From Escherichia coli O157:H7 (GTDB taxonomy: Bacteria; Pseudomonadota; Gammaproteobacteria; Enterobacterales; Enterobacteriaceae), in the NCBI RefSeq assembly GCF_013167455.1, contig NZ_CP038328.1: a stretch of DNA of 64,000 bases; one strand, written 5' to 3'. A program made the position numbers. This document shows, one piece after another, positions 52,601 to 55,600 of this stretch (the first letter of the stretch is position 1; the number at the start of each line of letters is the position of its first letter).

Positions 52601-55600
52601 CCCCCATAACACTGTTTTTGGTTTTAACTGTTCCGCGTGCGCTCAGCCGCATTCACCGCATCACAAAATTCACTTTAAAAAGGGCGGCAGAGCAGTCACG
52701 GAGTAAAACTGATACCGCCAAACGTCACCAGAAAATTGATAACAGAGGGCGTTGCAGCGGGGTTGTCACTTAAGCGTATGGTCAACCTGACAACCCGGTG
52801 TCCTCAACGGGGGAAGGAATAACCCCTCCATACTTACCGCCGCGCCATTTCGCGGATTGCCACAACCGGAAGCGCACGGTCGACGAAAATTTAACGACAG
52901 GCTATCTATGAACCAGCTACCTCGCCGTGCGCTTTCGCGTTATGGTCTGACTTTTCAGGGAAATATCCTTTCAGTAAACTGTCAGTGCCGTATGCTCACC
53001 CGTGTCCGGCGCACGCACTCCACCTCACCCGTGGAGAACTCCTTAATTACCAACCTTAGCTTCGTTGGTTAGCTATTAACGCGGGTATGTAATCATTCTG
53101 GCAATGCTTAATGCCGCTGCTTTTTCCAGATTGGTGATATCCTGCTCCAGAGCGGACAGATTTTCAGCCTGCTTAGCCCTGGCTTCATTGGCCCATTTCA
53201 GATCCTGCGCTGCATTAATTTTCTGGTGCATCCACTCATAAAGTTCATCATCGGTATAGTCTGGCGCGATGATGACGGGTTCTCGTTTCTGCATGTCGGC
53301 TCCTTGTGGTTAGCGTTGCCTGCTTTTAACCACGTCAGGCGAGGTGGTATCCTCTGAGGGGTCTGTTACTCGAGAGGAAATTGGTTATGAATACAATCAA
53401 GTTTTCTTGCCCAGAATGTGGTGGCGAAGTCTTTGACACATCCTTTAAGCCGCAGGGCTCTGACAGTTTCGCGGGAGCCATCTGCAAAAATTGTGGTCAC
53501 CTTGTAACTGAAGATGAGTCCTCGCAGTTCGATGACGAAATCGTTGACAATATCTTCGGTGCACTCACCAGAGACTTTCTGAAGTAAAGGCGCATACCGC
53601 TTAGTTACCGCTCTGATAACTCTTACCTGTCCTGCAATGGCGCTGATGTCAATATAAAGCGCCATTGCTGCTTCTTTGCCGATCCCGGGATGCCTTCCAT
53701 TCTGATGTTTGACTTCGCCCACTGAGAAACCCTCTGTTTCCCCTTAACGCCGGGGTAGCGGAACAAAAAACTGCTGCATAGTTATTAAAGTTGAACCCTG
53801 CCGTCATGTTCATACGCCTCGGGCTGGCTACTTAACCCCTGACCACTGCCGGGTAACTCGAAGTATTTCCCTGCGTTCTGTGGGGCGGGGTGGGTTGGTA
53901 TTTTTAGTTTAATAAACATTAAACTTAAGTCAAGTAAAAACTAAACCGCGGGACATAACAAACACAACGCTTTTGATAAAGTCGTTGCGGTTGTTATGTT
54001 TCTATTGGTAGTGAAAGTTAGGGAAACTGGCGTCTTGCGTGGATCACGTTTACTACTTCAACGCTTGATGTTGTTACGCGGTATAGAATTATATAGTTAG
54101 GGTGGGCTACAATCTCACGCAAGCCAGGTACTCTGTCGCTTGGTGGGTATAAATACGGATGTTCGGATAACGGCAGCACACAACCCCTTAATCGCTGCCA
54201 TAAGCGTTCAGCCGCATCTATGTCGAAACGAGCAATATAACTAGTTATATCATCTAGGTCGGTATCTGCGCTTTCAAGCCATAACACGGGTAACATTTTA
54301 CTGCTTGCTCCGTTCCTTGCGCATCTTAGCAAAGCGTTCTGCCATTCTGCGCTCAACTTCGTCATGGGGAATTGCTGGGCGCGGATCTGCAAGGCTCGTT
54401 GCTACTTTCGCACGCAGCCATTCGTTGTAACTGTTTTCTTGTTCAATGGTTTCAAATTCAGAAACCATTGGTGAAAGGGCTCTATTCATGTTTCCTCCGG
54501 TTTTATAACTCAGGCGCGGCGGCATTTTTGCGCCGCAATCCATCTCGCTATGAGATCTTCCATTGATTCTTTTTTCTGCTTTAACTCGCTGATTATCTGG
54601 CGTTGCTCATCCTCAGGGAAGGCTGAAAAAATCTGCAATAATTCCAGTTGATTAGACGTTAACCCTGCATGTGGTGGAGAACCCCCCGGTTGTTCTGCGT
54701 ATTCCGCATCCAGATACCCTTCCGGCATCCCGTATGTTTGCTCTATTCTTCTGGCAGCCTTTTCTCCAAACGAGGCTCTCCCACTCATTAGTTGAGATAG
54801 GTAGCTCTTCTCTTTGGGTGGCAGAGTTTTATCTTTAAACCACTCCTTGAGACGTAAACGGCGAATTTCTTTTTTTTGCATGTGGTAATTATCTTTAGTA
54901 ATCACTAAACAAGCAAATACTTGACTTAATGGTTTATTAAACACTAAACTCGCAAAAAAACACTAAACCGAGGAAGGTATGACATTAAAAGAGTTTATTA
55001 AATCATTAAGGGTTGGTGATGCTAAGAAATTCGCGGCCAGACTTGGTGTATCGCCATCTTACTTATCGCAAATGGCGTCTGGACGAACAGCTATATCTCC
55101 AACCCGCGCCCTTATGATCGAATCTGCGACGGAAGGCCAAGTAAGTAGGGCGGAGCTACGACCCCATGATTGGGAGCTTATTTGGCCTGAGTATGCGAGC
55201 GGCATTCGTTTGGGGCAAACACATGTAGTTCATGCTGAAGGTGATTGTAGTGCATGCTTATCTGATGGAGTTGATTCATGAAAATCAAGCATGAACACAT
55301 CCGCATGGCGATGAATGTCTGGGCGCATCCGGACGGCGAAAAAGTACCGGCTGCGAAAATTACCAAAGCGTATTTCGAGCTGGGAATGACGTTCCCGGAA
55401 CTGTATGACGACAGCCATCCGGAAGCCCTGGCCCGTAATACCCAGAAAATTTTCCGTTGGCTGGATAAAGACACCCCTGATGCTGTTGAAAAAATGCAGG
55501 CTCTGTTACCGGCGATCGAAAAGGCGATGCCGCCTTTGCTGGTGGCCCGTATGCGCAGCCACAGTTCTGAATATTACCGTGAGATCGTCGAACGGAGGGA

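Follow-up and report, generated by a model that had tools for sequence, protein, structure and literature searches.

A conserved four-way-junction RNA immediately ahead of DicF in an Escherichia coli O157:H7 prophage, with a possible role in terminator read-through

DicF is among the oldest known bacterial small RNAs (sRNAs) and controls cell division, metabolism and EHEC virulence. Two phage systems are close to the locus that we describe here. The lambda early leader has the order nutL, RNase III hairpin, N, and the put elements of phage HK022 act in cis without any phage protein: they bind the zinc-binding domain of the RNA polymerase beta' subunit and suppress downstream terminators. The spacer ahead of DicF has itself been described as untranslated (PMC5069750). 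RNase E-dependent cleavage on the 5' side yields DicF, and the dicBF transcript also undergoes RNase III-dependent cleavage on the 3' side (PMC5069750, PMC9438474). The terminated 53-nt DicF is a real product, and a 72-nt species (53 + 19 nt) was reported too (PMC5069750, PMC9438474). Finally, StxS, from the late promoter PR' and the terminator tR', provides a precedent for an antitermination site followed by a terminator that gives an sRNA as by-product (PMC7547250).

The window analysed here is a stretch of 64,000 nucleotides (64 kb) from E. coli O157:H7, in which a preliminary description had flagged the interval upstream of DicF. The gene order is ydfC, spacer, DicF, dicB, and the features of the locus are the following, in the order of transcription for the minus strand.

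53076-53294, minus strand: ydfC (72 aa), an ORF, the last coding gene ahead of the spacer
53043-53079, minus strand: hairpin across the ydfC stop codon (AACCAAC ... GUUGGU core), from a single-sequence minimum-free-energy fold
52735-53075, minus strand: the ydfC-dicF spacer, i.e., the flagged interval, placed between ydfC and DicF
52974-53046, minus strand: module A, AAGGAG followed by two copies of CACGGGUGAG, the repeat located by sequence search
52859-52945, minus strand: long imperfect hairpin (arms about 52945-52918 and 52879-52859), from inverted repeat I2 and the fold
52751-52877, minus strand: module B, a four-way-junction RNA of 127 nt (about 116 nt from P0 to P0), from alignment and covariation
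52735-52750, minus strand: A/U-rich single-stranded linker, from the sequence, ending at the DicF 5' end
52682-52733 (or 52734), minus strand: DicF sRNA and intrinsic terminator (Rfam RF00039)
52524-52673, minus strand: 20-bp long-range stem (arms 52673-52654 and 52543-52524), from a 19-nt reverse-complement match
52319-52507, minus strand: dicB, start codon at 52507
52908-53072, plus strand: 54-aa antisense ORF, WP_001331716.1, annotated by PGAP in some O157 genomes

The flagged interval is the untranslated spacer of a Qin-type dicBF operon transcribed from the minus strand, and comprises the 3' UTR of ydfC and the 5' precursor part of DicF; in this anatomy, taken jointly with the RNA family presented below, our confidence is very high. 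Aligned to the K-12 Qin locus, the spacer has 98% identity with 99% query coverage, and the flanking genes match. PGAP uses the name 'protein YdfC' at a 100% identical O157:H7 locus, and the ydfC product matches phrog_1744 (E 1e-39). This O157-type prophage carries relBE and a divergent zinc-binding gene in place of ydfA and ydfB. DicF was recognised by the covariance model RF00039 with 76.7 bits (gathering score 48), and the same model gave no match inside 52735-53075. From the K-12 DicF sequence, we take the exact 5' cleavage site to be the 52735/52734 junction. The 20-bp stem lies just past the DicF U-tract and just ahead of the dicB start codon. It is probably the RNase III site, judging from its pairing and position, and the 3' end of the 72-nt DicF species would fall inside its 5' arm. 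A consensus scan of the minus strand found no promoter inside the spacer.

The preliminary description had proposed that this region could be the processed 5' precursor of DicF, with GC-rich potential stems, or an additional structured RNA. The precursor is correct and was already established (PMC5069750, PMC9438474). The stems were recovered as well, the 421-nt sense RNA folding at -148.4 kcal/mol (z = -2.46; of 100 shuffles, 2 folded equally well). As for the structured RNA, a conserved, covarying fold does exist; its location and the reason given for it did not hold, the repeat segment on which the proposal was centred being poorly conserved. The conserved covarying structure stands 130-250 nt downstream of that segment, directly ahead of DicF. 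The spacer is in fact a mosaic, whose partial matches break at window positions 53015, 52955, 52899 and 52866. Its first two thirds (stop-codon hairpin, module A and long hairpin) are confined to the DicF prophages of E. coli, with few signs of constraint.

Structure prediction and covariation across homologues, which had been suggested as a check, support a fold at 52877-52751. We based the analysis on an alignment (A2) of 31 non-redundant copies of module B, which has the following elements, all on the minus strand.

52877-52871, minus strand: 5' edge motif GUGCGCU, from the alignment
52866-52859 with 52758-52751, minus strand: P0, the closing helix, from RNAalifold (4 of 8 pairs) and pair counts
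52855-52851 with 52844-52840, minus strand: hairpin P1, from RNAalifold and pair counts
52839-52836 with 52799-52796, minus strand: P2a, from RNAalifold and pair counts
52826-52823 with 52813-52810, minus strand: P2, a variable hairpin, from RNAalifold and pair counts
52795-52788 with 52768-52761, minus strand: P3, from RNAalifold and pair counts
52833-52828 with 52781-52776, minus strand: candidate pseudoknot GUAUGG/CCAUAC, from the P2a/P2 internal loop to the 19-nt P3 loop

RNAalifold recovered four of the eight P0 pairs, P1, P2a, P2 and P3 unaided. Over the alignment, 96.6% of the pair cells were paired, against 31-57% when the partners were slid, and both partners had changed in 13 pairs, compared with 4.8 +/- 1.4 pairs in shuffles (0 of 500). 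P2 was formed by at least six different stems among the variants, whereas the junction and loop bases were nearly invariant between phage P1 and the lambdoid phages. The window copy scored 169 bits with the covariance model. The G.U pairs would be mismatches on the opposite strand, so that the transcribed strand is the constrained one. These patterns of variation argue strongly for module B as a conserved folded RNA domain, and the judgement of very high confidence given above covers this family together with the anatomy of the spacer.

Other parts of the structure were less clear. The candidate pseudoknot is based on one compensatory and one wobble change, and its strands were partly fixed by the search patterns. 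An extension of it (A2 columns 55-57 with 122-124) was rejected and replaced by P2a, as 14 of the 31 copies were unpaired at one pair; a further pseudoknot, in which the P2 loop would pair with the bases following P2, was inconsistent across variants by eye and was dropped. The GUGCKCU motif of module B could pair with sequence past the terminator, with one compensatory change, but this pairing is not kept in all classes. Covariation suggests the long imperfect hairpin only modestly (compensatory GCGUACGG/CCGUACGC in two loci and U.G intermediates in two others). Its 3' arm contains the 5' strand of P0, and the long hairpin and module B are therefore mutually exclusive.

Module B had no Rfam 15 match at E <= 10, DicF being the only family reported in 52600-53120. 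A tRNA-like element was rejected, ARAGORN finding no tRNA or tmRNA and Rfam being negative. In the non-template strand of the RfaH ops consensus GGCGGUAGnnUG, position 6 is T and position 8 is G. We rejected an ops site (GGCGGUA) in module B as well, since the key positions are wrong and the variation is that of an RNA base pair: the sequence here is GGCGGUAAG, where position 8 is A instead of G, and in the P7 class the ops-like position 6 is C and covaries with its P2a partner (U-A to C-G). The fold is apparently uncatalogued, and an earlier description of it is possible.

Module B was present in 4310 of 5426 complete E. coli genomes (about 80%) and, among the matches listed, was never annotated in them. 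It was also found on 509 plasmids, mostly non-mobilizable; those among the matches listed measure 82-117 kb and match at P1- or P7-like identity. The phages that carry it are P1, P7, SJ46, cdtI, Stx2c phages and Salmonella F1055, and the other hosts are E. albertii, Citrobacter, Serratia symbiotica, Izhakiella and Trabulsiella. We recovered it without DicF in the P1 ban leader, in the early-left leaders of cdtI and Stx2c phages and in prophages of Citrobacter, Serratia, Trabulsiella and Izhakiella. By this comparison of loci, module B is an independent evolutionary unit. No second or divergent copy was detected in the window, in cdtI or in 100 IMG/VR loci, and every module-bearing locus among the latter had a single copy.

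Wherever the context was examined, module B was located in a repressor-controlled early operon. In P1, the alignment block with module B starts about 10 nt past the -10 box of the C1-controlled P1ban promoter, hairpin P1 begins about 45 nt past this box, and the element precedes tRNA genes, tciABC and ban. In cdtI, an early-left (PL-type) promoter of consensus-like sequence, beside cI, is about 255 nt upstream of the element, and an Stx2c phage has it between cI and the gene of phrog_204 (function not assigned). More generally, in cdtI- and Stx2c-type, Citrobacter and L020/L115-type loci, module B is downstream of, and co-oriented with, a gene for a CI-like HTH protein; in the Serratia and L021 loci, the 3.5 kb upstream of module B contain no such gene. 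The cdtI annotation lists no N gene, and in the Stx2c locus the stretch from cI to module B is free of ORFs.

An intrinsic terminator followed module B in each of the 18 distinct downstream classes, the stem sequences being unrelated. The distance to this terminator, 22-67 nt past P3 and about 10 to 55 nt past P0, can hold the DicF seed, and the terminators have UUUG or UUG before the stem and a U-tail after it. DicF is one of these terminator RNAs. The P1 record annotates the operator as controlling ban, and transcription from upstream must thus pass the terminator to express this gene; dicB in Qin (the dicB operon) is expressed by read-through in the same way.

The reading that we tentatively prefer, by analogy with put, is that module B controls read-through of the terminator that follows it. 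It would act in cis on its own transcript and govern whether RNA polymerase stops or reads on. Stopping would give a short RNA, which here would become DicF after RNase E trimming. Reading on would lead to dicB, ydfD and an exonuclease gene in this prophage, to the tRNA genes, tciABC and ban in P1, and to recombination, xis and int genes in cdtI-type phages. The likeliest form would be a put-like antiterminator that needs no phage protein and works through RNA polymerase or host Nus factors; this antiterminator would also shield long untranslated stretches from Rho. In read-through transcripts, RNase III would cut the 20-bp stem past the terminator and free the leader RNA from the downstream mRNA. 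The context is put-like, with a terminator in 18 of 18 classes and genes beyond it that depend on an upstream promoter. The broader proposal, that module B represents a new class of cis-acting RNA for terminator read-through without a phage protein, or for sensing a signal that decides it, with DicF and its relatives as terminated by-products, is possible but rather doubtful. Such a class would have no structural relation to put or nut, and it would extend over P1-like phage-plasmids and N-less lambdoid prophages across Enterobacterales.

Several observations weigh against control of read-through. Neither in sequence nor in architecture is module B related to HK022 put, and each phage carries a single copy, with nothing on the rightward (PR) side of cdtI, while HK022 possesses putL as well as putR. 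No convincing pairing for an antiterminator emerged, and module and terminator are separated by a variable distance. The terminated 53-nt DicF exists, so that termination is not abolished. The motif at the edge of module B that resembles boxA is degenerate in copies of the DicF class and missing from P1, and the candidate pseudoknot has only its one compensatory and one wobble change. A plasmid-borne dicF without the downstream RNase III site is functional (PMC6582626); if that construct also lacked the upstream leader, module B would be dispensable for DicF activity. Finally, a terminator as the constant end of an RNA element is characteristic of RNA genes and of riboswitches too, and these two alternatives are considered below.

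According to the first, which we consider possible though not likely, a phage RNA is released that has module B as its structured body or 5' domain, followed by a seed, where present, and a terminator of the Hfq type. Either termination or RNase III cleavage at the stem would produce the 3' end of this RNA, and RNase E would cut off its 3' piece as DicF. Module B would have a conserved component of the host as its target in trans; alternatively, it would be a domain for processing and stability, which sets the position of the RNase E cut. The P1 unit indeed resembles a compact promoter-RNA-terminator gene of about 190 nt, and UUUG or UUG, a terminator and a U-tail, as found in the 18 classes, resemble the Hfq-binding module of sRNAs. 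Termination on the one hand, and read-through with RNase III cleavage on the other, would free nearly identical RNAs. The near invariance of the loops and junctions between P1 and lambdoid phages is what one would expect for a conserved host partner, and the DicF 5' end is only 16 nt past P0, within the A/U-rich linker. However, the lambdoid classes are without a defined 5' end, the cdtI-type copies have almost no linker usable as a seed, and we know of no target or partner for the module B RNA. For mere protection or processing, a simple hairpin would do without invariant loops and a covarying four-way junction, and the position ahead of repressor-controlled early operon genes would be left unexplained.

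It is improbable, in our view, that module B is instead the sensor in a conditional attenuator (a riboswitch, or a leader that responds to a protein or a tRNA), in which binding of a signal would decide between termination and early-left read-through and tie prophage expression to host physiology. A conserved multi-helix domain with invariant junctions and a loop-loop contact, placed immediately before an intrinsic terminator in an operon leader, is the classical signature of riboswitches and attenuators, and the DicF-type loci have an upstream hairpin that competes with P0 for GUUGUGG, hence a possible folding switch. This competing hairpin is nevertheless restricted to the DicF class, we found no mutually exclusive pairing of terminator and antiterminator that the classes would share, and the terminator is at a variable distance past P0 that can hold the DicF seed. 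Moreover, the gene context suggests no ligand and there was no Rfam riboswitch match.

Returning to control of read-through, we did not find in the dicBF literature an explanation for the choice between DicF (termination) and the toxic DicB (read-through). Module B is a concrete and mutable candidate control point for it, with a fold common to the P1 ban leader and to the early-left leaders of phages without N. If it were a true antiterminator or sensor, temperate-phage early operons would have a third solution beside N/nut and put, and synthetic biology a compact part for read-through. If it were instead a released RNA, an abundant phage RNA family would have been left unannotated in E. coli genomes.

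That the interval encodes a small protein is very improbable. The preliminary description had seen no convincing ORF on the transcribed strand, and we agree: the sense (minus) strand of the spacer has only four ORFs, of 21-31 aa, with GTG, TTG or badly placed starts, without family support (Pfam, PHROG) or a coding-type conservation pattern. The candidates would be a 23-aa sense ORF (53053-52982, minus strand) and the 54-aa antisense ORF (52908-53072, plus strand). The first could be favoured by the AAGGAG at 53045-53040 and by a homologous 37-aa ORF called in phage phi367, which overlaps the start codon of the next gene, and the second by its PGAP call in O157. However, the TTG start of the sense ORF is 1 nt past a weak Shine-Dalgarno-like sequence, the good AAGGAG being inside the ORF, and one sense variant reads through. 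The antisense ORF is absent from the K-12 annotation, has no Pfam or PHROG match, and among its 19 variants, one of which has an internal stop, the substitutions are nearly all non-synonymous, as are those of the sense ORF; it is probably not a gene. The small ORFs of either strand, for which we saw no coding support, were rejected.

The 10-bp direct repeat of module A was confirmed, CTCACCCGTG (plus strand) occurring exactly twice in the 64-kb window (0.07 matches expected), but at 52995-53004 and 53024-53033 with a start-to-start spacing of 29, so that the coordinates 52994-53003 and 53022-53031, given as 28 bp apart, were off by 1-2 nt. A copy of the module A segment with 90% identity precedes a PAPS-reductase gene in phage vB_EcoP_phi367. 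In sequence comparisons, the segment 52974-53046 is poorly conserved and shows no sign of function. The idea that this exact 10-mer, repeated at 29-nt spacing, is a pair of sites for a DNA- or RNA-binding protein is hardly credible and was rejected, since the copies drift independently (11 of 25 distinct variants of the segment keep both exact copies, and the second K-12 copy matches at 9 of 10 positions), copy 1 coincides with the 5' arm and the loop of a short stem-loop, CUCCAC-GGGUGAG-GUGGAG, and repeats of this kind are no rarity in the window, where 10 10-mer direct repeats 10-50 nt apart were counted against 2.4 in Markov simulations, so that any single one may be due to chance.

Among known systems, the closest is the DicF precursor, or dicBF untranslated region (Faubladier, Cam and Bouche 1990; Balasubramanian et al. 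2016), which is the flagged interval itself. The DicF 5' end, terminator and long stem of this locus match the RNase E site, the 53-nt product and the RNase III (72-nt) site of that literature. It treats the spacer as untranslated sequence, and we did not find a conserved fold or a DicF-free occurrence described there; in the literature that our searches retrieved on dicF-like regions, dicF antitermination, the P1 ban operon and dicBF read-through, module B is not described. The "dicF-like region" of P1 (misc_feature 68791-68892, NC_005856) overlaps P3 of the P1 module B and the following terminator, which indicates that the P1 annotators had already noted a similarity to the dicF region. This similarity concerns only the leader (module B, window 52758-52855) and not the 53-nt DicF, and neither structure nor role is annotated in P1.

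Like HK022 putL and putR, module B is a cis-encoded structured RNA in an early operon of lambdoid phages without N, upstream of terminators that have to be passed by transcription. In contrast, put is about 70 nt long with two stem-loops and present in one copy per side, whereas module B is about 116 nt long with a four-way junction and present in a single leftward copy. Homology was rejected: model R1 found nothing in the HK022 immunity region at E <= 10, blastn gave no match in the 20-30 kb stretch of HK022 that covers putL and putR, and the only string common to both was GCGCGGCGG.

The likeness to the lambda nutL leader lies in the succession of an early-left promoter, an RNA element and a long RNase III-type stem just before the first gene. 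In several classes, a boxA-like UGCUCU is located 5 nt upstream of P0. Compared with boxA (CGCUCUUA / UGCUCUUUAACA), the motif reads AUGCUCUUU in Trabulsiella, GUGCUCUC in cdtI, Citrobacter and L115, GUACUCUA in Serratia and GUGCGCUU in the DicF class, and P1 has none; these boxA-like bases can alternatively pair with sequence past the terminator. On the other hand, module B has no 15-nt hairpin of the lambda boxB type, cdtI is without an annotated N gene, and the first gene after the element is that of phrog_204.

The last comparison is with StxS and the lambda 6S RNA, for which a terminator just past the antitermination site gives a short RNA that is processed to an sRNA (PMC7547250). StxS needs the Q protein and a late promoter, whereas the module B operon is early and no protein factor is evident. 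By this analogy, DicF could be a by-product equivalent to StxS.

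The point of interest in the window is a covarying RNA domain directly before DicF (52877-52751, minus strand; module B), and not the 10-bp repeat singled out in the preliminary description. The features concerned are the following.

53076-53294, minus strand: ydfC, a 72-aa ORF
52735-53075, minus strand: ydfC-dicF spacer of a dicBF-type operon
52974-53046: module A, the repeat-bearing segment
52682-52733, minus strand: DicF (Rfam, 76.7 bits against a gathering score of 48)
start at 52507, minus strand: dicB, an ORF beginning METLLPN

The placements of ydfC, DicF, and dicB on the minus strand identify 52735-53075 as the ydfC-dicF spacer. 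A 701-nt query around it was matched in 4587 of 5426 complete E. coli genomes, with 100% identity in O157:H7 genomes and 98% in the K-12 Qin prophage. The proposal that the interval is a 5′ precursor of DicF is correct and already known: the spacer is described as untranslated in PMC5069750, which, like PMC9438474, refers to Faubladier et al. (1990) in attributing the DicF 5′ end to RNase E and its 3′ end to intrinsic termination (53 nt) or RNase III (72 nt). The DicF 5′ seed region AUCAAUUUUCUGGUG (52726-52740, minus) is complementary at 14 of 15 positions to 53214-53228, a stretch of the ydfC coding region carried on the same RNA; the duplex is predicted to be at least −20.9 kcal/mol strong, mostly around −23, in 33 of the 35 loci having both, and could serve seed self-sequestration, as an RNase III substrate, or in regulation of ydfC by DicF. 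As for neighboring genes, ydfA and ydfB, present in K-12 Qin, are missing from this prophage; a relBE toxin-antitoxin pair comes after a repressor-like gene, and immediately 5′ of ydfC is a zinc-binding gene of the ECs_2282 family in divergent orientation (these differences lie at 53381-53587, plus, and 54018-54543, minus).

The absence of a convincing ORF on the transcribed strand was borne out, sense ORFs in the spacer reaching only 21-31 aa. Two ORFs were examined, a 23-aa TTG sense ORF running through the repeat and a 54-aa antisense ORF (52908-53072, plus); neither matched Pfam or PHROGs, and in both the changes among natural variants were almost only non-synonymous. The antisense ORF (WP_001331716.1, hypothetical protein), called by RefSeq/PGAP in O157 and not in K-12, has an internal stop in one variant and looks like an over-call.

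The repeat CTCACCCGTG does occur twice, at 52995-53004 and 53024-53033 (29 nt from start to start), 1-2 nt away from where it had been placed. Both copies are kept in only 11 of 25 distinct segment variants and change independently, the second reading CACGGGTGCG in K-12; on the RNA, a small hairpin takes its 5′ arm and loop from the first copy. The window contains ten 10-mer repeats spaced 10-50 nt, against 2.4 in Markov simulations, and module A is shared with phage phi367, where it stands 5′ of a PAPS-reductase gene and within a 37-aa PHANOTATE ORF. No functional support for the repeat as such was found in the 25 variants, the window repeat counts, or phi367, and we consider it uninformative. 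Overall, the observation is partly confirmed. Of the ten short repeats, eight fall within 54939-61155; seven of these are clustered at 54939-59047, part of the immunity and replication region (e.g., starts at 54939/54958, 56091/56121, 58081/58102, and 58995/59028), and they are possible operators or iterons. Other matches above the Rfam gathering score, at 59579-59753, 62669-62915, and 63692-63864, comprise sok antitoxin RNA, three tRNA genes, and STnc100.

The spacer is mosaic in structure: where E. coli genomes and phages match it in part, the match stops at discrete points. Positions 52743-52866 match phages without any DicF match, at 83-89% identity in cdtI, twelve Stx2c phages, PhiR47_1, 2H10, and Salmonella F1055, and at 76-81% in P1, P7, and SJ46. 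The P1 match overlaps a feature annotated "dicF-like region," so that this similarity had already been noticed by the P1 annotators; what P1 resembles is the leader, rather than the 53-nt DicF. Scanning IMG/VR twice and 100,044 species genomes once, we recovered many copies, in hosts including E. albertii, Citrobacter, Serratia symbiotica, Izhakiella, and Trabulsiella. In the window, in cdtI, and in the module-bearing ones among 100 IMG/VR loci, the module is present once per locus. Module B occurs at 8951 places in 4310 of the 5426 complete E. coli genomes, with no annotation there among the matches listed, and in 509 plasmids, mostly non-mobilizable; the plasmids among the matches listed are of 82-117 kb and carry it at P1- or P7-like identity.

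In an alignment of 31 non-redundant copies, RNAalifold unaided recovered four of the eight pairs of helix P0 together with helices P1, P2a, P2, and P3. On the structure that we specified, 96.6% of cells were paired, falling to 31-57% with sliding partners. The covariation check proposed beforehand supported the fold, with changes on both sides in 13 of 34 pairs versus 4.8 ± 1.4 in shuffles (0 of 500 reaching the observed value); five covarying pairs are in P0 and five in P3. P2 is formed in 22 of 24 variants, by at least six different stems, and in P2a the P7 class has a single compensatory change, from U-A to C-G. In all 31 sequences, the GUAUGG stretch of the P2a internal loop can pair with the CCAUAC stretch of the P3 loop, with one compensatory change (C-G in P1), one wobble, and no disruptive change; this pseudoknot is a candidate only, because the search patterns fixed parts of both strands. 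Many G·U pairs are valid on the operon strand alone, and the constraint therefore acts on RNA. In the P1 phage class, the closing helix is shorter and one further hairpin is present. Folding of module B could be conditional in DicF-type loci, where a hairpin lying upstream (about 52945-52859), itself with a little covariation, and P0 compete for GUUGUGG. The earlier reading of the interval is partly supported: DicF precursor and additional structured RNA both find support, the latter as the domain at 52877-52751 and not at the repeat, which is not the key feature.

An intrinsic terminator follows P3 by 22-67 nt in 18 of 18 distinct downstream classes, with highly diverse stems (e.g., DicF, GGCGGUACCAG..., GGCGGAAAUGGAUAUCCGCC, and GCCCAUCUUCGGGUGGGC). 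In lambdoid classes, a long-range stem of 15-20 bp then reaches from immediately after the U-tract to just before the first downstream gene. That of the window is a perfect 20 bp (52673-52654 with 52543-52524), brackets about 110 nt before the dicB start at 52507, and contains within its 5′ arm the reported 72-nt DicF end; an equivalent stem is built from unrelated sequences in cdtI-type and Serratia loci. Around these elements we also observed that GUGCGCU at the module B 5′ edge (52871-52877), a motif resembling boxA, can pair with AGCGCAC 3′ of the DicF terminator (52637-52643); the cdtI-type equivalent, GUGCUCU with AGAGCAU, amounts to one compensatory change, and the pairing is absent from Trabulsiella and Citrobacter. 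Several relative loci (L109, L115, and L140, from IMG/VR and Trabulsiella) carry UGCUGUGUGUAGUCUU instead of the DicF seed between module B and the terminator, which, judging from sequence, suggests sister sRNAs that may have other targets. In L115, L020, L136, and L140, long terminator hairpins contain AGGAG(G) ... GAAGAUAAUGUUCURCCG (loop and 3′ arm), i.e., a Shine-Dalgarno-like sequence and an AUG inside the terminator, in a reading frame varying between classes.

In P1, going downstream from the -10 box of the C1-controlled P1ban promoter, the alignment block with module B begins after about 10 nt and hairpin P1 after about 45 nt; then come two tRNA genes, tciABC, a third tRNA gene, and ban. 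In cdtI, whose genome has no annotated N gene, about 255 nt separate module B from a TTGACA-17-ATAATG promoter upstream of it, adjoining cI; this arrangement recurs in one Stx2c phage. In cdtI-type, Citrobacter, and L020/L115-type prophages, a CI-like HTH gene in the same orientation lies upstream of module B, and recombination, xis, and int genes come after it; no such HTH gene was found within 3.5 kb upstream in the Serratia and L021 loci.

From this context we tentatively propose that module B governs transcription fate at its terminator, most plausibly as an antiterminator resembling the put RNA of HK022, because the element, conserved in fold and invariant in its loops, invariably comes with a terminator, precedes repressor-controlled early-operon genes wherever context was examined, occurs in phages without N, and is followed by genes that depend on an upstream promoter. 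For the latter, the P1 record annotates the operator as controlling ban, beyond the terminator, and dicB in Qin, beyond the DicF terminator, is likewise expressed from the upstream promoter. Module B would act processively without a phage protein, possibly assisted by Nus factors (cf. the boxA-like UGCUCU edge motif in several classes), and DicF-type sRNAs would be by-products of the transcripts that terminate, much as StxS arises at PR′-tR′ (PMC7547250). Three results count against antitermination: module B bears no relation to put in sequence or architecture, the cdtI genome has no rightward copy, and no antiterminator pairing common to the 18 downstream classes was found. The fold-plus-terminator signature also fits an RNA gene with its 3′ end made by termination or RNase III, which we consider somewhat less likely, and a ligand- or factor-responsive attenuator, which seems improbable.

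We found no description of the fold, the family, or the terminator linkage in the searchable literature, outside which several key older papers lie. A conserved, very widespread, and unannotated RNA beside a classic sRNA is worth experiments. In membership tests, module B did not qualify as a lambda N-dependent nut site, having no boxB-like hairpin, nor as the RfaH element ops, a tRNA (ARAGORN reported nothing in the region), or a member of any Rfam family (Rfam 15, DicF being the sole match at E ≤ 10). It is not put itself either, from which it differs in both sequence and architecture; we group it with the structured leader RNAs found in phage early operons at points where termination is controlled.
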